Positions 2,409 to 64,000 of a stretch of DNA of 64,000 nucleotides are shown one piece after another; positions within the stretch are counted from its first letter, which is position 1; each line of letters opens with the position of its first letter. This DNA is from a phage: the sequence record PX915677.1; one strand, 5' to 3'. Both the position numbers and the translations under genes were made by a program. Under the pieces are notes generated by a model, which worked only from the letters and a program-made list of their open reading frames with translations, did not search any database and was not told the origin of the DNA.

Positions 2409-4685
2409 ATGATCGTTTATAATAACCAAGCACCTGATGCAGTGAATAACGTTGGGCAGTTTGGTGCTACTGAAGGCTCTATCGGAGCTTACAAGCAAGC
2501 AGCAGAATATGCAGCTGACTCCAAATATTGGGCACTGCTAGCAGAATCTAAGTTTGGTACAATTGATGATTTAACCGCTGAAGTAGAACGTCTATATCAA
2601 CAGGGTGTTCTGATGAAGCAGGATATTGAAGATCTTAAGCAGGATTTTAAGGATCAAGATGCTCGTTTGATGACTCTGATTGCCCAAACCAACGCAGCAG
2701 TATCGGATGCTAATAATGCCGTTGCTCTCATTAACCAAAAACTTATTGAAGTCCAGAATCAGCTTGATGTTCTGTTAGGAATGTCTGTTGATGTAACAAC
2801 TCTCCCTCCGGGAACTCCGGCTACTGGCTCTTTTAATCCTAACACTGGTGTAATCTCTTTAGGTATTCCAGAAGGTGATCCCGGAAAAGATGGTTCTGTT
2901 AAGGATTTGGATACAGCACCTACAGGTGTTCCAGAGCTAGGTGATTTAGGTTTCTATGTTGACAAAGATGACAATACCGTCCACAAAACTACTCTAGATA
3001 ACATTGCTAACTTAATCCCATCTGTCCGTTCTGTCTCTATTAACGGCGGTCCAGCTCTTGATGGAGAGGTTGCTCTAACGCTTAACAAAGAGACGGTAGG
3101 TTTAGGAAATGTTCTGAACGTTGCTCAGTACAGTCGTCAAGAGATTAATGACAAGTTTGATAAAACCACCAAGACATATCAATCTAAAGCAGAAGCTGAT
3201 GCTGACGCTCAATATCGTCAAGTTGGAGAGAAAGTCTTAGTTTGGGAAGCTACTAAGTATGAGTTCTACACTGTTGCTGCTAACAAAACATTAACTCCTG
3301 TTAAAACTGAAGGTAGAATTCTTACTGTTAATTCCCGTTCTCCAGACTCCAGTGGTAATATTGACATTACCATTCCAACAGGAAACCCTTCTCTATATCT
3401 TGGTGAGATGGTAATGTTCCCTTATGACCCAACAAAGAATATCTCCTATCCGGGCGTTCTTCCAGCCGATGGTCGTCTAGTGTCTAAAGAGTCTGCTTCA
3501 GATTTAGGCCCATCCCTTGTCAGTGGACAACTTCCTGTTGTTTCTGAAACTGAATGGCAAGCAGGGGCTAAACAATACTTCTCTTGGGGTAAATTGGCAG
3601 ATGGTATTACCGATGCAGATTCTACTAATTTTATCAACATTCGACTTCCTGATTGGACTGGAGGGGAGGCAATAAGAGCACCAGATTCTGATAAAGACTC
3701 TCAGTACAATGGGTCTGTACAGGCTCAGAAACCTTATGTTGTTACTGTAAATAACCAAGCTCCTGATGAGATTACTGGTAATGTGAACATCTCCAGATCA
3801 ATTTTAGGTGCTGCCGCTTCTGGTACAAACTCTGATATAACATCCCTCACGGGACTCACTACAGCACTGTCTGTCACACAAGGAGGCACTGGAGCTAAAA
3901 ATGCTGCTAGTGCTCGTTCTAATCTAGGGTTGGGAAGTGTTTCTACTCTGGATAATGTACCTATTGCTAATGGTGGGACAGGGGCTGGAGATGCTGCTGG
4001 TGCAAGGTTCAATATTGGAGCGCTAAGTAACACCCCAGCAAATTCAGGCGTAGGTGGTACTGGGGATCGTGTCCAACATGCCTCCGGGAACGGCCTGTTT
4101 ACTTTAGACTTGTTTAACTGCTACTGGTATATGCAGCCAGAGGATACTAACTTCTGGATTGCCCACGGTGTGTCATATGCAGGGTCTGGTGGCGAAGCCT
4201 CACAATACGGTCGCATATCTTACGCAATAAAGATTGCAGACGGAACAATAAAATATGTCCATTGTCTTACAAACAAAAACACCACTGTTGATGTAAACGG
4301 ATTTATCAAAGCGGCATCTCCGGTAGTTCATATTTACTCCGACGGTCGATATGAGACGAACGAGGAATCTGAGGGGGTTAATGTCATTCGGCAAGGTGTT
4401 GGTGAGTACTTGATTACCGGTTGCCTTGGCTTAAACGCAGATGCAAAATGGGGAGGCATTGACGGCGGCTTTGAAATCCCTACTGACCGCAACAAACAAC
4501 CTAGGGTTTGGCTGGACTATGAGATTAAAGAAGATGGTTCTATTTTAGTTAAAACCTATCACAGAACCCATCCAACCTCTCCGGTTTTTGCTAGAAATGA
4601 GATAGAAGGTTTTTCTGACGGTGATCCTATTGATATCCCGAGTGATGCTTTTATTTCAGTTCGTGTTGAAATGCCTTCTGAGTAA
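2409..4685 (+). CDS. tail fiber protein
   Basis: N-terminal coiled coil; repeated GGTGA..AAxARxNLGLG-type motifs (TQGGTGAKNAASARSNLGLGSV, ANGGTGAGDAAGARFNIGA) typical of phage tail fibers. Confidence 0.6.
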   Translation: MIVYNNQAPDAVNNVGQFGATEGSIGAYKQAAEYAADSKYWALLAESKFGTIDDLTAEVERLYQQGVLMKQDIEDLKQDFKDQDARLMTLIAQTNAAVSDANNAVALINQKLIEVQNQLDVLLGMSVDVTTLPPGTPATGSFNPNTGVISLGIPEGDPGKDGSVKDLDTAPTGVPELGDLGFYVDKDDNTVHKTTLDNIANLIPSVRSVSINGGPALDGEVALTLNKETVGLGNVLNVAQYSRQEINDKFDKTTKTYQSKAEADADAQYRQVGEKVLVWEATKYEFYTVAANKTLTPVKTEGRILTVNSRSPDSSGNIDITIPTGNPSLYLGEMVMFPYDPTKNISYPGVLPADGRLVSKESASDLGPSLVSGQLPVVSETEWQAGAKQYFSWGKLADGITDADSTNFINIRLPDWTGGEAIRAPDSDKDSQYNGSVQAQKPYVVTVNNQAPDEITGNVNISRSILGAAASGTNSDITSLTGLTTALSVTQGGTGAKNAASARSNLGLGSVSTLDNVPIANGGTGAGDAAGARFNIGALSNTPANSGVGGTGDRVQHASGNGLFTLDLFNCYWYMQPEDTNFWIAHGVSYAGSGGEASQYGRISYAIKIADGTIKYVHCLTNKNTTVDVNGFIKAASPVVHIYSDGRYETNEESEGVNVIRQGVGEYLITGCLGLNADAKWGGIDGGFEIPTDRNKQPRVWLDYEIKEDGSILVKTYHRTHPTSPVFARNEIEGFSDGDPIDIPSDAFISVRVEMPSE

Positions 4686-4694
4686 TTTAACAAT

Positions 4695-4713
4695 GCTCCC
4701 TTCGGGGGGCTTT
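4695..4713 (+). terminator. terminator-like hairpin
   Basis: gctccc-ttcg-gggggc stem with UUCG loop followed by TTT. Confidence 0.4.
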
Positions 4714-4725
4714 AAGGAGATTTAA

Positions 4726-6924
4726 ATGTCTAGAGAATTAATGCCCAAATCTGGTATAATGATGCCTCATGTGGTTGTAACCAGAGACGCGGCTGTTGTT
4801 GGGGTTTCTACTGTAGATGGACAGGCTGGAGCTATTAACCTCACCGGAAAATATTTACAGAAAACCGACGCAGCTGCTACCTATCAAACTAAAACAGAGG
4901 GTGCATCTAAAGATTTTGTGCTGGATTCGATTCAACCTATTATGTCTGGTGCGCTGTTCCGAGAAGACCCTTGGGTTGTTAATGATACCCCATTCCGTTC
5001 TACTGGAGCTAATGGTGTAGAATCAGTTGATATGATGAAAGTTACTACTGATAACTCAATCAAGATTGGTAGTTATGCCTCTTCAGTTCAAGGTGTAGAG
5101 ATTCATTCTGCTGGTCGTCTTCAGGTTGTTGACCAGAATGACTCTGGGGTAGAAACTAAGTATCCAGTTTATTCTAAACGTTACCGTCCTGAGATTGAGG
5201 ATTTGCCTTTTGCTGCAATTGGTTCTTATGTTAAAGACTCTAAAGGTCGTACGGTAGGTGTTACTCGTACAGGGATTAACTCTGATATCAAACAGCTCAC
5301 ACAGAAAGTTACTTTCACTCAACCAGTAACTGTCCCTGATGCAGTTGGTGATCATGATGCGGTTACTTTGAGACAGCTTCGAAACAGTGGTGGTGGCTCT
5401 GGTGGTCCTACGATGAGCGGTATCTCTAACTTTGGTATTGGTGATTTCCATTTACGTGACAGTCGAGCTTTTATTCCAGCTTTTGAGGTAACGTCAGACG
5501 GTCAGCTTCTTAATCGTTCAGAGTACCCAGATCTCTGGGCTTATGCACAGCTGTTATCCCCTATCTCAGATTCTGAATGGCTTAGTGATGCCCAAAAACG
5601 TGGACAGTACTCTACTGGTGATGGTTCTACTACTTTCCGCGTTCCAGACCGCAACGGGGTTCAGGTCGGTTCTATTAGGGAGCTATTTGGTCGCGGTGAT
5701 GGTGGTACATCATCCAACGATGGTGTTATCTATGATTCTGCTGCACCTAATATCAAAGGTAAGGTCGCTGGTGTATCAGCCGGGACTTATGCAGGGATAT
5801 TCGGGACGTCTGTGCAAGATTCATTCTATACGGATAACAGTTTGTATCCGGCTGGTGGAGGGGACACTATACCTCCGGGGTCCGGTGCAGTTGATGGACG
5901 TAATAATACTCTAGTCTTCGACGCAAGCCAGTCCAACCCAGTTTATGGTCGTTATAGTATCTCTGACAACATTATACCGAGAAACTTTGTGGGGGTTTGG
6001 ACTATTCGTGCTCATGGTGGATTTGTTGCTGCTAATACTTCTTGGTCTGTTATTAATAGTGACACCACACGACCTTCCAACGGAACGAAAGTTTCTAGTG
6101 GGTCAGTTGTCTCTGAGTATAAAATCGGTTCAGAAGTAGAAGCTTCTACTACTCTCAAAACTGATGCCTACATCAACGGAGCTTACTATGGAATCATTGA
6201 CGTCTACAATAAAACTAAAGGAGTTACCAAGCAGTTAGCTTTCGACGATTCTGGTACACTGAATTCTGATAGGTATGTTTCTAGATTTGGCACTTTGATG
6301 TCTTGGAGTGAAACAGGAGCTAGGAAAGGAACATTCTCCATGGACAACCAAGGGCTAGGGTCTAACTTCTCCTTCAATTCCATACTAAGTGCTTCTCAAT
6401 CATCTAGTGGGGGATACAAGACCACCACTCATGTTGGCATGATTCACAACGACGCCGGAACTTTTGCCGATTCTTGCTGGCACGTTGCAGGTGATGAAGA
6501 CAACAAATACGGTTGCCGTCTAACACTTCGACCAAACAGGAATGAGATTTTATATTATACTTGGCAACCCGGCTCTACTGGAACATACACTCTTGCTCTG
6601 AATCCCGTGTCAGATGAAAGATTAAAACATGATATCCAAGATATTTCCCCTGAGAAAGCTATCAAAGCTATTAAAGGTTTGGATTTCAAATCATTTGTGT
6701 ATAACAATGATGAGCAAGGAAGAACTCGTCGTGGTATTATTGCACAGCAAGCAGAAAAGGTAGAACCTCTTTATGTTAAGACTCGTAGGTTCCACGACAA
6801 TGATGGTGTAGAGCAAGAACAGAAAGAGCTAGACTCAGCTCCTATGCTCCTTGATACTATGCAGGTTGTTCAAGACCTTCTGAAGCGTATTGAAGTTCTA
6901 GAAGCAAAACTAGCAGAGAGGTAA
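4726..6924 (+). CDS. tail fiber/tailspike with C-terminal intramolecular chaperone (peptidase S74-like) domain
   Basis: C-terminus ...NPVSDERLKHDIQDISPEKAIKAIKGLDFKSFVYNND...GIIAQQ... matches the autoproteolytic chaperone domain of phage fibers and endosialidases; SD aaggag. Confidence 0.65.
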   Translation: MSRELMPKSGIMMPHVVVTRDAAVVGVSTVDGQAGAINLTGKYLQKTDAAATYQTKTEGASKDFVLDSIQPIMSGALFREDPWVVNDTPFRSTGANGVESVDMMKVTTDNSIKIGSYASSVQGVEIHSAGRLQVVDQNDSGVETKYPVYSKRYRPEIEDLPFAAIGSYVKDSKGRTVGVTRTGINSDIKQLTQKVTFTQPVTVPDAVGDHDAVTLRQLRNSGGGSGGPTMSGISNFGIGDFHLRDSRAFIPAFEVTSDGQLLNRSEYPDLWAYAQLLSPISDSEWLSDAQKRGQYSTGDGSTTFRVPDRNGVQVGSIRELFGRGDGGTSSNDGVIYDSAAPNIKGKVAGVSAGTYAGIFGTSVQDSFYTDNSLYPAGGGDTIPPGSGAVDGRNNTLVFDASQSNPVYGRYSISDNIIPRNFVGVWTIRAHGGFVAANTSWSVINSDTTRPSNGTKVSSGSVVSEYKIGSEVEASTTLKTDAYINGAYYGIIDVYNKTKGVTKQLAFDDSGTLNSDRYVSRFGTLMSWSETGARKGTFSMDNQGLGSNFSFNSILSASQSSSGGYKTTTHVGMIHNDAGTFADSCWHVAGDEDNKYGCRLTLRPNRNEILYYTWQPGSTGTYTLALNPVSDERLKHDIQDISPEKAIKAIKGLDFKSFVYNNDEQGRTRRGIIAQQAEKVEPLYVKTRRFHDNDGVEQEQKELDSAPMLLDTMQVVQDLLKRIEVLEAKLAER

Positions 6925-6928
6925 TATA

Positions 6929-6946
6929 AGCCCCTTCGGGGGCTTT
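6929..6946 (+). terminator. terminator-like hairpin
   Basis: agcccc-ttcg-ggggct stem with UUCG loop, then TT. Confidence 0.45.
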
Positions 6947-7016
6947 AGTAGTGAGTACCCTTAGTAAGTAATGAAACTAATATATCCCAAGAGGTTAATA
7001 TATAGGAGACACTCAA

Positions 7017-7235
7017 ATGAAAATGATGAAACAAGCTGCATATGGTTTAATATGTTTAGGCGCAGGTGTTGTGGTATCCACCGCAGTTCCTGTAGGCGCA
7101 GTTCATCCATTAGTAACTGTCCCTGCTCCAGTAGAGAAGCTTAGCTCTCAATGCAAGCAGAGAACAATTCAAAATAACTTAGTTGTTATTTGCCCTGATG
7201 CTGAATCTAACGCTCTGAGAAAGATACTACCTTAA
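7017..7235 (+). CDS. small membrane/secreted protein adjacent to endolysin (holin or lysis accessory candidate)
   Basis: 72 aa, N-terminal hydrophobic segment AAYGLICLGAGVVVSTAVPVGAV; SD taggag; directly upstream of the lysozyme gene. Confidence 0.35.
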   Translation: MKMMKQAAYGLICLGAGVVVSTAVPVGAVHPLVTVPAPVEKLSSQCKQRTIQNNLVVICPDAESNALRKILP

Positions 7236-7264
7236 TTTAAAGGGACTACAAAAGGAGGTTAGAA

Positions 7265-7756
7265 ATGGATAACGTCGCATTGCCACCTGTACAACTAAAC
7301 TTAAGCCCAGCTGGAATGGAATTCATCATGAAGCATGAGGGTATGAGAACAAAGGCTTATAAAGATTCCGCAGGTATCTGGACTATATGTGTAGGGGCTA
7401 CGCGCGATATGAATGGTTATCCGGTTAGACAAGGATTAACGTATTCTATAGAGGATTGTCTAGCTCTGCTAGATAGAGACACACAAGACTCTGTTCGTGC
7501 TACTCAGAAGAACATAAAGGTTCCTTTACTGGTTCATGAGTTTGATGCACTCACTTCTTTCAACTTCAATGTTGGCAGTGGGGCTTTAAGCACATCTAAG
7601 TTAAGGAAGGTAATCAATGGAGATGTTAAGGGGGATGTTTATTCCGAATTTCTTCGTTGGGATAAAATAACGGTCAAGGGAGAGAAGCAGAGAAGTCAGG
7701 GTCTTCATAATAGAAGAGTTGCAGAAGCTAATCTTTACACCGAAGGTAAATATTAA
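7265..7756 (+). CDS. endolysin, phage lysozyme (GH24-like)
   Basis: ...FIMKHEGMRTKAYKDSAGIWTICVGAT... with the Glu/Asp/Thr catalytic pattern of T4/P22-type lysozymes; SD aaaggagg. Confidence 0.8.
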   Translation: MDNVALPPVQLNLSPAGMEFIMKHEGMRTKAYKDSAGIWTICVGATRDMNGYPVRQGLTYSIEDCLALLDRDTQDSVRATQKNIKVPLLVHEFDALTSFNFNVGSGALSTSKLRKVINGDVKGDVYSEFLRWDKITVKGEKQRSQGLHNRRVAEANLYTEGKY

Positions 7757-7768
7757 TGGAGGTGCCTT

Positions 7769-8572
7769 TTGGCTATCGAAACTAATGCGGTAGTTATTAC
7801 CGACTTAAACCCACTCTATCCTAGAGACAGGGATTACATCTACGAAGGGGCGGCTCAAATCCGCCTCATTAAACAAACGTTACAGAACACATTCCCCAAT
7901 GTTACAGAGCCAGTTGATATAGATTCTGACACCTTTAAGATCATGTCAGAGAAGCTCAAATTTACTGGTGATGCAATGGATGTTGGTGGTCTTATGATCA
8001 AGAACGTTACTCCGGGAACTGGTGACAAGGACGTTGTTACTAAAGGCCAGATGGAAGCGTTCATGAAGAACTGGATGGAGAATAAAGTATTCCGTATTGG
8101 TGCTTACTATATCACTGAAGAAGACATTAACCCCGGTGATTCTATCTCCTTAGGGTTTGGTTCTTGGGCTAAAGTGACTGGTGTCATTATGGGTACTGGT
8201 GTAGTAAACCCTGATGGTTCTGTCCCTAATGCTCAGAGAGTTGAGTTCCAAGCAGGTGGTACTGGTGGTCGTGTCTTCAATACCATTCGAACAGAGAACG
8301 TACCTTTGATGACAGTTAATGGCTCCAGCTTCTCTCTGTCCAGTAATACTCATAGTCACAATATGGTGTTTGGTCGTGGAGATGCTAGTGGTCATAACAG
8401 CTCGCCAAACTGGTATAGTCCGGGTGGTGGATATAGTCAGAGAACTGATAATGACACACATACTCATACAATCTCTGGTAGTGTAAGTCTTGGTCGTGAT
8501 GATATTTCTCGTCAACCTATTAACACTTTGCCACCATTCAGAGCAGCTCACATTTGGAGACGTATTAGCTAA
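7769..8572 (+). CDS. tail fiber/collar-like structural protein
   Basis: 267 aa; TTG start 6 nt after GGAGG; Gly/Ser/Thr/His-rich C-terminus (HTHTISGSVSLG...INTLPPF) resembling fiber collar domains. Confidence 0.4.
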   Translation: MAIETNAVVITDLNPLYPRDRDYIYEGAAQIRLIKQTLQNTFPNVTEPVDIDSDTFKIMSEKLKFTGDAMDVGGLMIKNVTPGTGDKDVVTKGQMEAFMKNWMENKVFRIGAYYITEEDINPGDSISLGFGSWAKVTGVIMGTGVVNPDGSVPNAQRVEFQAGGTGGRVFNTIRTENVPLMTVNGSSFSLSSNTHSHNMVFGRGDASGHNSSPNWYSPGGGYSQRTDNDTHTHTISGSVSLGRDDISRQPINTLPPFRAAHIWRRIS

Positions 8573-8581
8573 GGAGGAATT

Positions 8582-11500
8582 ATGGCGCTGTATCCAATAA
8601 AGTCACTAGGTGCTGTAGGCGTTATCGCTGACCAAGCTCCGACAGACTTAGCTCCTAATGCTTTCACTAATGCTATAAATGCTCGATTTGTTGAGCAGAG
8701 AGTATTTAAGACGGGGGGCAATGCCCCTCTTTCTTATGTAGATGAAGATAAGGATTTAACCCCTCTGTCTTTCGTTTCTATGCCTTTCGATTATTATAGC
8801 GCAGGTAATAGCTTTCTTGTTGTAGGTACTAATAAGAAGTTATATAAACTGACAGATGAAAGCTTGACTGATATTAGCCGTAAGGTTGCTACAGTCACTA
8901 AGAAGGCTTCTGCCTCAATTAAGATTTATCCAGTTGTTTCTCAGATCGTTCCTAAAGAATCAACTATCTCAATGAACTTCAATCAGACCAAGAATCTAGA
9001 GGTTTCTCTTCTCCCTGCTGATGCTAACAATACCGATCTTATTTGGGAGGTTAGTAACTCATCCTATGGAAGTATTACGGTAGACCCTAGTGACTCTAAA
9101 CTTGCTACTCTAACATCTTTTGAGAAAGAGGGTAATCTTGTAGTAACTATCTCTACTGCCAATGAATCCGTAGTGGCTCAGATTGCTGTTAATATCATCG
9201 ATGGTGATTCAGGCATCTTCTTGAGTCAAGATACTGTTACAATTCGTAAAGGAGGGACTACTACTCTCACGGCTGTTACTGGTAAAACTCCTGTAACTTG
9301 GTCCAGCAATAATGCTTCTATTGTATCCGTAACCCCTAACGCCAACTCTTTAACTGCTGTCATCACAGCGAACGGAGAAGGTAATGTAACAATCACTGCT
9401 GATAACGGGACTAAGACTGCTTCTTGTGAGATTGTTTCTATCCCTCAGATTGATAGTATCTCTTTAAGCCAGTCAGATGTTACTGTGAGTAGAGGTTCTC
9501 AGTATATCTTAACTGCTACCCTTTCTCCTGCTAACGCCCCTAATCAAAATATTACTTGGACCTCTTCTAACCCAAATATTGCAACAGTATCAGGGACTAG
9601 CACACAAGGGACGATCAACGCTCTGCTTGCTGGTTTTACTGAGATTACAGCTACCACTGAAGAAGGTAACAGAGTTGCTGTCTGTACTGTACGTGTGGAT
9701 TTAGCTGGAAGGACAATGAGAACAAGTGCTATGGCATTTGCCGCTCCTGTGTCAGAGTCAGTAGAAACTCAAGAGGAAGAAGTAGTAACTCCTCCTGAAA
9801 GTGAAGAGACGGTTTATTTTGCTGAGCCTACATCCGGTATTGATACGTCAGGGATGTATGAAGGTAACAACTTCTATGACTACTCTAACGTGAATGATAT
9901 TGAAGGTTTTGCAAGAGCTTCTTTACTGGCAACCCCTTTGTCATCTGTAACCTTAGATATTGTCAGCGCTTCTCTTGATGTTGGTGAAGAGATTGTCATT
10001 ACAGCCACAGCTTCTCCAGAAGGTGAGTACTCTTATCAGTGGTCTGTTGATAAAACTGGTTATGTTTCTACAACTTCAGTTACTGGTAAATCTATCAAAC
10101 TGGTTGCTCTTCGTAAAGGAGAGATTAACGTAACATGTACTGTCAGTCAGATGACTCAGAAAGATTACGATGCTTTTGATGACTATCCTTGGTATCACGC
10201 TGTTATCTCTAACTGTGCAGTTGCTACAACTCACTATGAAACTCCTCAGGTAAAAGAATTCGAATCAGAATACTTTGTAGATCTTCCGGGATGGGGTGAG
10301 CAAACAGTTGTTGATAATGACGGAAACCCTTCAGTCAAGAAGTTTAACTGGAAATGTGAGAGAGTAAGATCTTTTAACAACCGTCTTTTTGCTCTGAATA
10401 TGAGAGAGGCTAATGCTTCTGGTGTTACCACTAACTACCCGCTTCGTCTTCGTTGGTCTAACTTTGCCAATGAGAACAAGGCTCCTACACTGTGGGATGA
10501 CTTTGCCTATGATCGAGTTGTGTCTTCGGACTTAGCTTCTAACATCGTAGGGCAGACTCAGGCTCTAGAGAATGGGTATGCTGGTTACATTGACTTAGCA
10601 GATTCTAATGGTAGCTTGATTGATATCCTACCTCTTAAGGATTACTTGTTCGTTTATACAGAGTTTGAAACGTATATTGGTTCTCCGACTAATAACACGT
10701 ACCAACCTCTAATGTTCAAGAAGCTCTTTAACGACTCTGGTATCCTTGCTCCCGAGTGTGTGGTTGAAGTAGAAGGTAGTCACTTCGTAGTTACTCAGAA
10801 CGATGTAATCTTACACAACGGTGCAACTAAGAAGTCAATTGCATCTAACCGTGTCAAGAACATGCTGATTAACGAGGTGTGTCTGGTTAATCCTTTAGCA
10901 ACTCGAGTACACTTGCATCAGGATAAGAAAGAAGTTTGGGTTCTCTATGTAGGACCGGGGGAGCCAAAAGAAAGCTTCGCTTGTACTAAAGCTGCTGTAT
11001 GGAATTACGAGTTTGATACTTGGTCTTTCCGTACTATCCCATATGCTCAGTGTATTGGTCTGGTTGATCCTCCTGTTTTAGAAAGAGGTCCAATCTGGTC
11101 TGACTTCCAAGAAATCACTTGGGATGACCCATCTATTAAAGAACTCGTTTGGAGAAAGGATGCAACAAACTTTAGACAGAGGGTTACGATAGTAGGTTCA
11201 TTCTTGAAGGGATTCTATCAGGTGGATGTAGGCGCTCTTGATTATTTCTATGACAGGCTAAATGATGTTGTTATAGAGAAGCCTCTGGAAATGAGGTTGG
11301 AGAGGACTGGTATAGATTTTGATAATGTGACGAATGAGTGGAATCAGAAGCATATTAATAGATTCCGACCTCAGACAACTGGTTCAGGTACTTACATATT
11401 TGAAGCTGGTGGTAGTCAATTCTCAAATGAATATGGACACCCACACACATCTAAGACATATACGATCGGTGTTGACAGGCATGTCTCGGTGAGACTGAAC

Positions 11501-11599
11501 CATCCATACCTTTTCTATAATGTTATAGATAATGATGTTAACAGTAATGCTGCTATCAATGGTTTAACGATAGAGTTTGCTGTTGGCGGGCGGAGATAA
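8582..11599 (+). CDS. large tail fiber/spike-like protein with multiple Ig-like (Big_2) repeats
   Basis: 1005 aa; at least four repeats of the pattern ...SxxxVtVxxGxtxxLTAtxxPxxAxNxxxxWxSSNxxxAtV...; SD aaggagg. Confidence 0.55.
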   Translation: MALYPIKSLGAVGVIADQAPTDLAPNAFTNAINARFVEQRVFKTGGNAPLSYVDEDKDLTPLSFVSMPFDYYSAGNSFLVVGTNKKLYKLTDESLTDISRKVATVTKKASASIKIYPVVSQIVPKESTISMNFNQTKNLEVSLLPADANNTDLIWEVSNSSYGSITVDPSDSKLATLTSFEKEGNLVVTISTANESVVAQIAVNIIDGDSGIFLSQDTVTIRKGGTTTLTAVTGKTPVTWSSNNASIVSVTPNANSLTAVITANGEGNVTITADNGTKTASCEIVSIPQIDSISLSQSDVTVSRGSQYILTATLSPANAPNQNITWTSSNPNIATVSGTSTQGTINALLAGFTEITATTEEGNRVAVCTVRVDLAGRTMRTSAMAFAAPVSESVETQEEEVVTPPESEETVYFAEPTSGIDTSGMYEGNNFYDYSNVNDIEGFARASLLATPLSSVTLDIVSASLDVGEEIVITATASPEGEYSYQWSVDKTGYVSTTSVTGKSIKLVALRKGEINVTCTVSQMTQKDYDAFDDYPWYHAVISNCAVATTHYETPQVKEFESEYFVDLPGWGEQTVVDNDGNPSVKKFNWKCERVRSFNNRLFALNMREANASGVTTNYPLRLRWSNFANENKAPTLWDDFAYDRVVSSDLASNIVGQTQALENGYAGYIDLADSNGSLIDILPLKDYLFVYTEFETYIGSPTNNTYQPLMFKKLFNDSGILAPECVVEVEGSHFVVTQNDVILHNGATKKSIASNRVKNMLINEVCLVNPLATRVHLHQDKKEVWVLYVGPGEPKESFACTKAAVWNYEFDTWSFRTIPYAQCIGLVDPPVLERGPIWSDFQEITWDDPSIKELVWRKDATNFRQRVTIVGSFLKGFYQVDVGALDYFYDRLNDVVIEKPLEMRLERTGIDFDNVTNEWNQKHINRFRPQTTGSGTYIFEAGGSQFSNEYGHPHTSKTYTIGVDRHVSVRLNHPYLFYNVIDNDVNSNAAINGLTIEFAVGGRR

Positions 11600-11605
11600 C
11601 AACAA

Positions 11606-11632
11606 GGGGCTTCGTGCCCCTTTTATTGTTTT
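11606..11632 (+). terminator. rho-independent terminator
   Basis: ggggc-ttcgt-gcccc stem followed by TTTTATTGTTTT. Confidence 0.7.
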
Positions 11633-11642
11633 GGAGGAACTT

Positions 11643-12611
11643 ATGGGTGCAGGTGGTTTTCGTAAGAACACTGGTCGCAACAACACCACACTCCCGTACA
11701 ACGTTGGGTTTCTCAATAATGTACAGGACACAGAAACATATAACGTAGCCGTATATGATGAGCTACAAAAAGTCAGTACAGCTACTAACCAAATGTTCCA
11801 AGCTATTGATGAGATTCACGATGAGATTGATGTTCGTATCAAAGCTCTCCATGCGATGAACTTACAATTTGATGAGCTTGAGAATAGAATTACTACAGAG
11901 ATAGAGACAGCTATTGCCGATATCCAAACACAGATGGGGAATCTCTCCACTGAAGATATTTGGGATAATTCTGTTCAACCTCCTGTGAAATTAGAAAGCA
12001 CTGTATCTGGTTTTAAAACAAGTATTGAAGGTAACACAACCAAGATTCAAACGGTAGAAGGTATTGTCAACGATCAAGGTCAAGAGATTGCTTTTGTTCA
12101 GACAGAGATTCAAAATATTAATGGAAGCCTATCTCAGTATATGAAGCTCTCTGAGTATGAAGCTACGTGGGGTGTTAACTCTACAGTCAACGGAAGATAT
12201 GCTGGGGTCAAGTTAACTAACAACGGAACAAACAGCCAATTCCAAGTAACAGCTAACAAATTTATTGTTGGTGATGGCAACTCTGGTAATACTCCCTTCG
12301 TGTTTGAAGGTGGGCGAGCTAGGATGGAATTCGCTGATATAAAGAACGTCAATATCACAACAGCTCAGATTGCTAACGCTAGAATCCAATGGGCACAGAT
12401 TGATAACGTATCCATCTCCAACGCCCAGATTCAGAACTTATCAGCGGATAAAATCACTGCTGGTTCTATGTGGGGTTCTAACTGGAGACTAACTGTTGGT
12501 GGTGACTTTGTTATGGGTGGTACAGGTGGGGCGCAGTTGTGGATGAATGGTAACAGAATCGACTTCTACGATGGAAGTGGTGCTCTGAGAATTAGAATAG
12601 GGAGTTGGTAA
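11643..12611 (+). CDS. virion structural protein (coiled-coil, fiber-like)
   Basis: ATG 11643 with GGAGG SD preferred over the listed 11577 start, which overlaps the terminator; coiled-coil N-half, NISNAQIQN-type repeats. Confidence 0.5.
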   Translation: MGAGGFRKNTGRNNTTLPYNVGFLNNVQDTETYNVAVYDELQKVSTATNQMFQAIDEIHDEIDVRIKALHAMNLQFDELENRITTEIETAIADIQTQMGNLSTEDIWDNSVQPPVKLESTVSGFKTSIEGNTTKIQTVEGIVNDQGQEIAFVQTEIQNINGSLSQYMKLSEYEATWGVNSTVNGRYAGVKLTNNGTNSQFQVTANKFIVGDGNSGNTPFVFEGGRARMEFADIKNVNITTAQIANARIQWAQIDNVSISNAQIQNLSADKITAGSMWGSNWRLTVGGDFVMGGTGGAQLWMNGNRIDFYDGSGALRIRIGSW

Positions 12612-59487: not shown

Positions 59488-59563
59488 TGGTGCGCCCTAC
59501 AGGACTCGAACCTGTAACCAATAGCTTAGAAGGCTACTGCTCTATCCATTGAGCTAAGAGCGC
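59488..59563 (-). tRNA. tRNA-Arg (anticodon TCT)
   Basis: Hand-folded cloverleaf: acceptor GCGCTCT/AGGGCGC, D-arm GCTC-AATGGAT-AGAGC, anticodon loop CTTCTAA, T-arm ACAGG-TTCGAGT-CCTGT, encoded CCA. Confidence 0.8.
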
Positions 59564-62098: not shown

Positions 62099-62356
62099 TT
62101 AATCCACCTTATTGGTAAGTCGAGCATTATCAACTACCTGAACAACAGTATCTTTTCTCAACATTGTTATTCTATCCGAAGTGAGATCTACTACTACTCT
62201 TTCGTCAGGCTTCCAACTAGCTGAATAAACGGTTGAGGAATCTAGCTTTACTGTAAGATATATTTTATTTTTAGGTGGAACAGTTTCAAAAACACTCCCC
62301 ACCTTCAGGTCTTTCAGTTGCTTGACTACAGGGGCTGTATTAATATCATGCTTCAT
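62099..62356 (-). CDS. small protein, expanded paralog family
   Basis: Start at MKHDINTAPVV with SD aggag; VKQLKDLKVGSVFETV... Confidence 0.4.
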   Translation of the reverse strand: MKHDINTAPVVKQLKDLKVGSVFETVPPKNKIYLTVKLDSSTVYSASWKPDERVVVDLTSDRITMLRKDTVVQVVDNARLTNKVD

Positions 62357-62642
62357 TGTTAATCTCCTGCTGCTTAGCAATAGCCACTCGTAAGTCTTCA
62401 TTAGCACGAGCAAGGCGCAACACTTCATGATTGAGGTTCTGAAGACGTTTGTTTCTGTCTTCAACTTGCATAATAAGATCGTTGAGTGTTACTTTAACTT
62501 TCTCGTTATACATCTCATCCACTCGAACTAGTGATTTATACATTCTCTCCCAGCTTGCTGCTTTGTTTCTGAGAACAATAAACCCTATAACGCTGATAGT
62601 TAAACAGCTTACAAAAAGGAATTTATATACTTCTAAAGTCAT
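62346..62642 (-). CDS. membrane-anchored coiled-coil protein
   Basis: N-terminal TM FLFVSCLTISVIGFIVL followed by heptad-rich helical region. Confidence 0.4.
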   Translation of the reverse strand: MTLEVYKFLFVSCLTISVIGFIVLRNKAASWERMYKSLVRVDEMYNEKVKVTLNDLIMQVEDRNKRLQNLNHEVLRLARANEDLRVAIAKQQEINNEA

Positions 62643-62841: not shown

Positions 62842-63231
62842 TTATTCCCTAGAGCTATTATCGAACACTAAATCACCACAATACATAGGATTGGCATACC
62901 ATTTTGGCACCCCTTCGCTCTTACTCTGAAAGTAAGTCCCACTGTACAGCGGAACATAATTCTTCTTAAGGGCACGTTTAGCAAGTCGCTCGCTTTCTCC
63001 AATGGCTTGCTTAGTCATCGGATTTTTATCACGAATCAGCTTTACATAACGTTTATAAGGTTTCTCCTGTTTTAATAGTACCGGAATCCACTCAAACTGG
63101 TTCTTCTGTCTTATCACCTGTTCAGCGGTCAGTTTTCGTTGGGCCATTCTATTTATCACGGTATCCGCAACTAAAGCCTTACATGCGGTTGGCTGATTCC
63201 CTGCCTCATAATAAATAGTCAATGTCAACAT
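62842..63231 (-). CDS. SleB/CwlJ-like cell wall hydrolase domain protein
   Basis: TIYYEAGNQPTACKALVADTVINRM...EQVIRQKNQFEWI matches Hydrolase_2 (SleB) core pattern. Confidence 0.5.
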   Translation of the reverse strand: MLTLTIYYEAGNQPTACKALVADTVINRMAQRKLTAEQVIRQKNQFEWIPVLLKQEKPYKRYVKLIRDKNPMTKQAIGESERLAKRALKKNYVPLYSGTYFQSKSEGVPKWYANPMYCGDLVFDNSSRE

Positions 63232-63304
63232 TAGCTGTGCCGTTGTTATCAGAACTTGCTACCTCCTGTTTTGTTGTTTCAATAAACACCCTCGAAAAGA
63301 TGCT

Positions 63305-63334
63305 TATAGAAACACCCCTCCCTTTCGGGAGAGG
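63305..63334 (-). terminator. rho-independent terminator (minus strand)
   Basis: ccucuccc-gaaa-gggagggg stem (GNRA loop, one G-U) followed by U-rich GUGUUUCUAU. Confidence 0.55.
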
Positions 63335-63341
63335 CACTATC

Positions 63342-64000
63342 TTACCACTCGTAACTTACACCAGCGCCCAGAACAGCGTCACTCTCTGAAGTCATTGCCA
63401 CTGATGCTTTAGTTACTACGTTTTCATTGAAACGAGCACTAACACCAATAGCAAGAGCAGATTCACCATCGTAAGCACCTACCCCAGCACCAACAGAGAA
63501 AGCAGATCCTTGACTTACTTGCGGGATGTTAGCCATTGCAGCCACGCCAGAAATACCAGCAGAGGCATGATCACGGTTACGGTCTACTTGTTTTTGCAAA
63601 GAAGCAAAACGTTTATTGGTGGATTGTTCCAGAGCTTTGATGGATTTGGCGTTAGCATTAACGGCAGACATATCTGCATCTTTACCATTTTTGCCATTTA
63701 ATCCGTCAACGCCATTCAAACCTGCTGCACCAGTTAGGCCAGTTTCGCCTCTCTTACCATCTGCACCAGAATCACCTTTTTCACCTTGAGCGCCTTGTTC
63801 TCCATCAATGCCATCTTTACCATCAATGCCATCTTTACCATCAATGCCATCTTTACCATCAATGCCATCTTTACCATCAATGCCATCTTTACCATCAATG
63901 CCATCTTTACCATCAATGCCATCTTTACCATCAATGCCATCTTTACCATCAATGCCATCTTTACCATCAATGCCATCTTTACCATCAATGCCATCTTTAC
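63342..64000 (-). CDS. collagen-like repeat protein with YadA-anchor-like C-terminal domain (5' partial, continues beyond window)
   Basis: Frame of listed ORF 63342..63719 stays open upstream through uninterrupted Gly-X-Y triplets (GET GLT GAA ... then (GKDGID)n); C-terminus GVAAMANIPQ...GAGVSYEW resembles trimeric autotransporter anchor. Confidence 0.55.
   Translation of the reverse strand, partial: KDGIDGKDGIDGKDGIDGKDGIDGKDGIDGKDGIDGKDGIDGKDGIDGKDGIDGKDGIDGKDGIDGEQGAQGEKGDSGADGKRGETGLTGAAGLNGVDGLNGKNGKDADMSAVNANAKSIKALEQSTNKRFASLQKQVDRNRDHASAGISGVAAMANIPQVSQGSAFSVGAGVGAYDGESALAIGVSARFNENVVTKASVAMTSESDAVLGAGVSYEW
63802..64000. repeat. perfect 18-bp tandem repeat array, at least 10 copies, truncated by window end
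   Basis: Unit ccatctttaccatcaatg repeated head-to-tail from 63811; encodes (GKDGID)n on the minus strand. Confidence 0.9.

Follow-up and report, generated by a model that had tools for sequence, protein, structure and literature searches.

A length-variable collagen-like protein with a predicted YadA-type membrane anchor, encoded by an accessory gene of kuraviruses

The 64,000-nucleotide (nt) stretch of phage DNA analysed here (sequence record PX915677.1; hereafter the window) ends within a gene on its minus strand, the 3' part of which, its distal two-thirds with 218 codons and a stop codon, lies at positions 63342-64000. Our analysis indicates, with good confidence, that this is an accessory gene of kuraviruses encoding a minimal trimeric autotransporter, which would form a length-variable rod displayed by the infected cell rather than a fibre of the virion. 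The phage itself is, by nucleotide matches, a Kuravirus, one of the phiEco32-like podophages with a prolate head (Gordonclarkvirinae): about 100 phage records, almost all from kuraviruses of Escherichia or Shigella, match the final 2 kb of the window. The gene was delimited from its open frame and its 99.1-99.6% nucleotide identity to 13 Kuravirus genomes.

The minus-strand frame that begins at 63998 reaches its stop codon at 63342-63344 without a single internal stop. It yields a 218-residue fragment composed of 11 KDGIDG units, then EQGAQGEKGDSGADGKRGETGLTGAAGLNGVDGLNGKNGKD, then ADMSAVNANAKSIKALEQSTNKRFASLQKQVDRNRDHASAGISGVAAMANIPQ..., and ending in GAGVSYEW. The units are encoded by a perfect 18-bp tandem array at 63802-64000, minus strand, for which Tandem Repeats Finder reported a period of 18, 11.1 copies, 100% matches and a score of 398; an exact-match scan found 11 identical units reaching the window edge, which is a lower bound for this allele, as the array extends past the end of the window. 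Each unit comprises six codons and specifies two Gly-X-Y triplets, making the array an in-frame variable-number repeat, and with the 13 triplets of the adjoining non-repetitive collagen-like segment (63678-63801, minus strand) the window holds 35 consecutive triplets. A helical segment follows, and then the C-terminal part, ...GVAAMANIPQ...GAGVSYEW. The original prediction, which had the frame running upstream through Gly-X-Y triplets into at least 10 perfect copies of the 18-bp unit, is thus borne out, and in complete orthologues the frame runs on further upstream to a signal peptide. The 5' end with that signal peptide, a tip with a cysteine pair, the first six or so Gly-X-Y triplets and possibly more repeat units lie beyond the window. 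The 125-residue open reading frame (ORF) listed at 63342-63719, with a TTG start, is an artefact of ORF calling, and an equal truncated ORF is annotated in phages MN03 and ShigP1. We also rejected the other two minus-strand frames, which are either closed or, in the case of a MALMVK... repeat, an artefact of the array.

Three lines of evidence agree that the protein combines a collagen-like region with a YadA-type trimeric anchor, as had been proposed. First, Pfam recognizes Collagen (PF01391, E 3.9e-19) and YadA_anchor (PF03895, E 1.6e-19; 70.2 bits against a cutoff of 22.7), the latter covering model positions 1-60 of 60 at residues 159-218 of the fragment; the protein terminates in ...SYEW and so carries the C-terminal aromatic residue characteristic of type Vc anchors. 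Second, a phmmer search of the sequences of solved structures matched the YadA anchor (2lme, 2e-8, query residues 129-218) and the Hia translocators 3emo, 2gr7 and 2gr8 (about 4e-5), with the 2gr7 alignment spanning residues 115-218. Collagen matches outrank these anchors in that search, and BclA (1wck) is also among the matches. Third, an AlphaFold2 monomer model of the last 125 residues, built on a 15-sequence alignment (mean predicted local distance difference test score, pLDDT, 75), consists of a single helix at its residues 7-63 (57 residues, pLDDT 70-86) followed by four beta-strands. When this model was compared with the PDB using Foldseek, the top five matches were the translocator domains of Hia (three entries), AtaA and YadA, with probability 1.00 and template modelling (TM) scores of 0.53-0.81, after which the next match falls to E 0.04. 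An anchor or trimerisation fold was thus looked for at the C-terminus and a translocator fold was found. On the window, the helix, a predicted coiled-coil stalk continuing into a pore-traversing anchor helix, occupies 63531-63701, and the four-stranded membrane anchor, ending in GAGVSYEW, occupies 63345-63524, both on the minus strand.

This predicted architecture makes the protein a trimeric autotransporter (type Vc) of minimal size whose passenger is collagen-like. Established type Vc systems lead us to expect that three chains would together form a 12-strand outer-membrane barrel with the passenger exposed on the cell surface. The whole Gly-X-Y tract of the window allele is proline-free and rich in Lys and Asp, and its non-repetitive segment is rich in Lys, Asp and Glu and ends in the motif GKDADM(S/T)xV; the tract, which might form a triple helix, lies next to a predicted trimerising coiled coil and anchor. 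No head, neck or other known binding domain was found in the passenger, for which Pfam gives only the collagen match, the anchor being the other Pfam domain of the protein.

Complete orthologues provide a view of the N-terminus, where the signal peptide was assigned by inspection. They open with a Sec-type signal peptide, either MKAIVLSSILALSVMASPVIA followed by KSG... or a second variant, MKAFALSAILVLSAISAPSFA, followed by HSD.... In all nine fully resolved orthologues this consists of Met-Lys, a 14-residue hydrophobic core and an A-x-A-like site (VIA or VFA before K, or SFA before H). The mature protein then begins with a tip of 25-30 residues containing two cysteines (C-x9-C or C-x5-C), followed by about six Gly-X-Y triplets and the array; the tip exists in two unrelated variants, of the KSGNNGNGNGGCG... 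and HSDKCSHSKQCE... types. The annotated TTG starts of phiEco32 and Bas90 are located 40-43 codons further upstream than the start of the signal peptide and are almost certainly wrong, because the extension crosses a terminator hairpin (predicted free energy, dG, -18.6 kcal/mol, six U) and because it consists of backbone DNA that is also found in phages without the gene.

The gene is not new, contrary to how the original prediction had treated it. Its orthologue in phiEco32, gp119, was deposited in 2008 as an 'agglutinating adhesin' (ABY52920.1; EU330206 69718-70515), has been mentioned in the literature (PMC3728262) and was later relabelled 'tail protein' in RefSeq; other orthologues are called 'tail protein' (Bas90_0117 of phage SkaterBoy), 'YadA-like protein' (EcM-vB1) or simply gp111 (MN03). 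The existence of the gene and its similarity to YadA are therefore already known, and novelty in that respect is low. Our literature search, which covered work other than the primary phiEco32 papers, found no functional study of gp119 or of other YadA-anchor genes of virulent phages. Fifteen records, representing 13 phages, are 98.4-99.6% identical to the window at the nucleotide level over the 459 bases outside the repeat, and the window gene shares with the phiEco32 gp119 orthologues its insertion site, between the homologues of phi32_120 and phi32_117, and its domain order. It differs from them in one private Lys-to-Arg change and in the length of its array (at least 11 KDGIDG units, against one in phiEco32 and seven in Bas90), and the database entries for the orthologues of MN03, FS2B and ShigP1 are truncated.

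The most variable feature of the gene is the number of its repeat units. Among the resolved genomes, KM01 has no KDGIDG unit (precursor of 196 residues), phiEco32 and EK5 have one (226 residues each), EcM-vB1 and EcK-vB three (258 residues each), phiEc_1 four (244 residues), Ec3-ASingh five (250 residues) and Bas90 seven (262 residues). Two metagenomic proteins likewise have no unit; these came from a word-indexed protein search whose 17 matches, many of them partial at contig ends, served for alignment and for finding zero-repeat alleles and do not measure the size of the family. Other arrays are cut short in the published records: those of FS2B (at least six units) and PGN6866 (at least nine) terminate within the array, the ShigP1 array contains a run of N, and MN03 (NC_070990.1) is split in the array, with six units at each record end (L067, 1-108, and L068, 2562-2669). 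Both ends of the MN03 record carry an odd unit, GIDGIDGKD, one GKD triplet short, and the ends may overlap, in which case a count of 6 + 6 may count units twice. In all, four of the 13 published Kuravirus assemblies have a break or a gap within the array, leaving truncated 'adhesin' or 'hypothetical' ORFs of 109-125 residues. Short-read assembly evidently breaks down for arrays longer than about 130-150 bp, and high copy numbers are accordingly to be read as lower bounds.

Copy number thus ranges from zero to at least 12 among genes that are otherwise 99% identical, in agreement with the prediction that the perfect repeats give a protein of variable length. Alleles differ in length only by multiples of 18 bp, and every one of them preserves the reading frame and Gly-X-Y register. 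Frame-shift switching between ON and OFF states was considered and rejected, since the 18-bp unit is six codons long and only length varies. MN03, phiEc_1 and EK5 share one haplotype of single-nucleotide polymorphisms outside the array and carry at least 12, four and one units, respectively, which implies that copy number changes faster than point substitutions accumulate; the array presumably expands and contracts through replication slippage or unequal recombination. Outside the array, the 148 codons compared in 13 genomes contain 12 synonymous and five conservative non-synonymous variable codons, a pattern consistent with a working gene under purifying selection. No fully assembled copy is disrupted, and this, together with the restriction of indels to multiples of 18 bp and the excess of synonymous changes, argues that the gene is functional.

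In physical terms, the rise of collagen is 0.286 nm per residue, and one six-residue unit would add about 1.7 nm to the rod. The predicted rod would then measure about 10 nm in KM01, which has 12 triplets and no unit, and at least 35 nm in the window allele, in which about six triplets are expected upstream of the 35 in the window. The repeat is a real and fast-changing length polymorphism of a predicted surface rod.

Comparison with kuraviruses that lack the gene identifies it as a moron-like accessory cassette, discretely present or absent between conserved genes. Bas90 has 881 bp (L001, 5274-6154) where ES17 has 5 bp (L071, 4274-4278), with clean junctions and flanks that are 97.5-98.5% identical between the two phages; the cassette contains the gene, a 23 bp leader and a downstream hairpin. 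Paul and SU10 share this empty site. Fifteen of the roughly 100 records matching the flank carry the gene, and the other 85 or so match only up to position 63272, which places the in-window part of the cassette at 63273-64000. The insertion point follows two terminator-like hairpins located 3' of the phi32_120 homologue and precedes a gene for a SleB-like hydrolase. These backbone hairpins (Bas90, L001, 6164-6183 and 6251-6268, minus strand; dG -18.6 and -15.4 kcal/mol) both have U-tracts, and the pair is also present in ES17 (L071, around 4285-4400). They lie inside what is supposed to be a single early transcription unit, with the adhesin gene, the hydrolase gene and about 50 small ORFs beyond them.

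The transcription signals of the cassette itself are modest. A terminator-like hairpin belonging to the cassette begins 7 nt after the stop codon (63314-63335, minus strand), with a 9-bp GC-rich stem, a GAAA loop, a dG of -18.7 kcal/mol and a z-score of -3.9 (none of 200 shuffles was as stable). The earlier claim that the gene has its own terminator thus finds only weak, partial support, since the hairpin is stable but its U-tract is poor (GUUUCUAU). A scan of the 1 kb upstream of the gene in Bas90 found no sigma-70-like promoter on the coding strand. A one-mismatch match to the promoter element of the phiEco32 sigma factor gp36, TACTGTATA, lies 13 nt before the ATG; we rejected it, as it is badly placed with respect to the ribosome-binding site and such matches are at chance level (47 with one or two mismatches observed, 50 expected). 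Expression of the gene is probably by read-through. The GC content of the gene (0.42-0.455) compared with that of the preceding 5 kb (0.32-0.455) gives no clear signature of foreign base composition.

Exact copies of the published phiEco32 gp36 promoter consensus, TAATGTATA, occur five times in the window, where 0.67 copies are expected and none of 100 shuffles reaches five. These copies (1106, 18161 and 29464 on the plus strand; 29392 and 35956 on the minus strand) probably mark middle and late promoters of the phage.

Several observations bear on where the protein is located. In the window the tail fibre genes (2409-12611) are encoded on the plus strand, opposite to the adhesin gene and about 50 kb away from it, in keeping with the original prediction that the gene lies away from the tail cluster. 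The minus-strand cluster at the gene's end of the genome has been classed as early in phiEco32 and SU10, with sigma-70 promoters about 2 kb upstream, in the spacer before a 900-bp gene (PMC8948821; PMC4281155). A virion protein would be expected in the structural late module and in all relatives with the same virion architecture; this gene is in an early cluster on the opposite strand and is absent from ES17, Paul, SU10 and altogether about 85 of 100 records. The virion structure of SU10 has been solved, according to the BASEL paper, and the SU10 proteome is uninformative about the gene precisely because SU10 does not have it. Finally, in the Ithacavirus phages FSL SP-058 and FSL SP-076, which are N4-like Salmonella phages unrelated to kuraviruses, the homologue lies between the genes for dUTPase and RNA polymerase, a non-structural setting already remarked on for FSL SP-058 (PMC3728262). 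From the signal peptide, the complete beta-barrel anchor, the early position, the patchy presence that includes its absence from SU10, and the Ithacavirus setting, we infer that the protein is most likely displayed on the infected cell and is not part of the virion. A virion fibre had been left as an option in the original prediction, and the signal peptide, outer-membrane anchor, early cluster and SU10 absence now favour the cell surface. The name 'tail protein' used in RefSeq and PHROGs, which was most likely prompted by the collagen repeats, is probably a mistake.

The family extends well beyond kuraviruses. A tblastn search found the stalk and anchor in 79 of 50,697 phage records, among them kuraviruses, N4-like, T4-like and jumbo phages of Salmonella, Yersinia, Erwinia, Pantoea, Cronobacter and Aeromonas, and 63 IMG/VR contigs contain homologues. 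The layout of signal peptide, collagen region and anchor recurs in Ithacavirus-like contigs (33-46 triplets, no perfect array), in contigs L012 and L013, the former from an unclassified virus, and in the chromosomes of Ewingella americana (49 triplets), Yersinia artesiana (13) and Y. proxima (9). The junction motif GKDADM(S/T)xV, at 63678-63701 in the window, is common to Kuravirus, Ithacavirus, contig L012 and Ewingella americana, which suggests one coherent family rather than repeated independent fusions; the motif may serve specifically to join a triple helix to a three-stranded coiled coil. The proteins of FSL SP-058 and SP-076, E. americana and the two Yersinia species share with the window family the signal peptide, cysteine-pair tip, collagen rod, coiled coil and anchor, and the Ithacavirus stalk and anchor are 66-67% identical to those of the window family. 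They differ in that their collagen DNA has diverged, with no perfect array in 33-49 triplets, and in having a larger N-terminal domain or extra coiled-coil segments.

The closest cellular anchors, 55-69% identical, belong to environmental Enterobacteriaceae (Leclercia, Scandinavium, Cedecea, Citrobacter and others), and most of them carry coiled-coil rather than collagen passengers. No host donor was identified; a DNA search of 5,426 complete E. coli genomes gave no match. With YadA, Hia, AtaA and the prophage-encoded Eib proteins the window family has in common the C-terminal four-strand anchor after a coiled-coil helix and, in the orthologues, a signal peptide, and there is a precedent for phage origin in the EibD structure 2xqh, whose source is given as 'Enterobacteria phage P' (PMC7247746). 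In contrast to these proteins, the window family has a collagen-like rod, lacks a head and neck and is only 196-262 residues long in the resolved orthologues; its gene belongs to strictly virulent phages and lies in an early region. Neither the daTAA domain catalogue nor a 2019 review of trimeric autotransporters mentions collagen-like domains in such proteins. Scl1 and Scl2, BclA and the collagen-like tail fibres of phages resemble the window family in having an unbroken Gly-X-Y tract beside a trimerisation domain and in varying in length with the number of repeats; their anchors, however, attach to the cell wall, exosporium or virion, whereas that of the window family is an outer-membrane beta-barrel, and the tract of the window allele is distinguished by being proline-free.

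Based on this architecture we can propose a rough scheme for the biogenesis of the rod. By analogy with YadA, Hia and other trimeric autotransporters, the precursor would be exported by the Sec system, after which the barrel assembly machinery (BAM) would assemble three chains into a 12-strand barrel in the outer membrane and the passenger would be threaded outward, C-terminus first. Collagen helices normally fold from the C- to the N-terminus. The coiled coil would set the register of the three chains and let the collagen triple helix zip up in that direction, and the far end may be held together by the cysteine pair at the N-terminus. The infected cell would then carry thin, rigid rods on its surface.

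Some considerations weigh against this proposal. The collagen region, with its putative triple helix, has no proline; the passenger has no recognizable head or ligand-binding domain that would point to a role; and expression, export, trimerisation and surface display are predictions from sequence and structural model. Both the temporal class of gp119 and its presumed absence from virions are deduced from secondary sources and from SU10, and the N-terminus of the window allele itself is not in the window. In addition, the gene lies directly behind two strong backbone terminators with no convincing promoter between them and its start codon, and its expression may be low or dependent on read-through.

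What the rod might do can be addressed only tentatively. Kuraviruses depend on the O-antigen for infection (PMC11990801), and this dependence, together with the lack of a head domain, favours a rod that spans the O-antigen layer; with low confidence, we suggest that it probably has to reach through or beyond that layer. With similarly low confidence, we suppose that the rod alters the adsorptive surface of the infected cell, our first choice of effect being steric exclusion of further phages and a close second the adhesion of infected cells to their neighbours.

Adhesion in its own right is the alternative that survives best, although we consider it unlikely. The displayed protein would agglutinate infected cells with their neighbours, or attach them to surfaces or mucosa, such that progeny would be released next to new hosts. 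Autoaggregation is common for trimeric autotransporters (PMC7568254), the tip occurs in two unrelated variants as expected of a part that contacts a ligand, the Ithacavirus tip is a conserved domain of about 55 residues, and the historical label is 'agglutinating adhesin'. However, that label was transferred from YadA through the anchor alone, the Kuravirus tip is only about 25-30 residues long, and a YadA-like head or neck and any known binding domain are missing.

A more speculative idea, which we regard as doubtful, is that a strictly virulent phage employs a type V secretion protein of host type as an early surface 'spacer', a rod in the outer membrane whose length is tuned to the thickness of the O-antigen by rapid changes in repeat number, serving either as a shield for superinfection exclusion or to prevent the loss of progeny to infected cells and debris. 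If true, it would define a new class of phage exclusion factor and, for the YadA-anchor genes that virulent phages of enterobacteria and Aeromonas carry in 79 records, it would be the first function assigned.

Less probable still is that the gene is a drifting passenger, a moron acquired from an enterobacterial chromosome or prophage that plays no part in lytic growth, with its long array partly an assembly artefact. Its patchy distribution among kuraviruses, its position behind backbone terminators with no clear promoter and the occurrence of its closest cellular relatives in environmental Enterobacteriaceae would all be expected on that account, and four of 13 assemblies do end or have gaps in the array, making short-read counts above about seven unreliable. 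Against this, the ORF is intact in all resolved genomes, with indels always in frame; synonymous outnumber non-synonymous variable codons by 12 to five; and the architecture has been kept in an unrelated virulent phage lineage, down to a conserved collagen/coiled-coil junction. As for an assembly artefact, the array was found independently in many genomes. Last, we think it very improbable that the protein forms a tail fibre or whisker of the virion, in which the collagen-like part would be the shaft and the C-terminal domain would serve only for trimerisation. Phage fibres often have such shafts, the top PHROG matches go by the names tail protein, adhesin or tail fibre, and the phiEco32, Bas90 and FSL SP-058 orthologues are 'tail protein' in RefSeq; but the orthologues carry a cleavable Sec signal peptide in place of a virion-attachment domain, their C-terminus is a complete membrane beta-barrel anchor, and the gene lies in an early cluster on the opposite strand some 50 kb from the tail module and is missing from about 85% of related records, SU10 with its solved virion structure among them.

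Our preferred reading, an accessory gene for a rod displayed on the infected cell, has some practical consequences. It bears on database curation: the 'tail protein' label is probably wrong, several deposited start codons lie too far upstream, beyond a terminator, and four Kuravirus assemblies break or have a gap at the array. Furthermore, since there are therapeutic candidates among the kuraviruses, it is relevant whether infected cells gain an adhesin-like and possibly immunogenic protein.

The neighbourhood of the gene offers a few further observations. Directly downstream of the insertion site, at 62842-63231 on the minus strand, is the gene for the SleB-like cell-wall hydrolase (Pfam Hydrolase_2, E 1.7e-7; phrog_12974), which has no signal peptide; kuraviruses conserve it whether or not they carry the adhesin gene, and it belongs to the early cluster, away from the late and structural genes. 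A 43-residue ORF with a GTG start at 63206-63337 (minus strand; phi32_118, Bas90_0116) begins in the cassette hairpin and overlaps the start of the hydrolase gene; half of it is cassette DNA and it matches no family, and it is probably not a gene. A 98-residue ORF at 62346-62642 (minus strand) is labelled 'DNA helicase' in Bas90, ES17, EcM-vB1 and EK5, but Pfam shows no helicase domain in it, giving only sub-threshold matches to domains of unknown function (DUF). It resembles a small coiled-coil protein whose N-terminal segment is hydrophobic, and the helicase label is probably a propagated error. The early cluster also contains a tRNA-Arg gene (anticodon TCT) at 59488-59563 on the minus strand, which is conserved in phiEco32, Bas90 and Paul.

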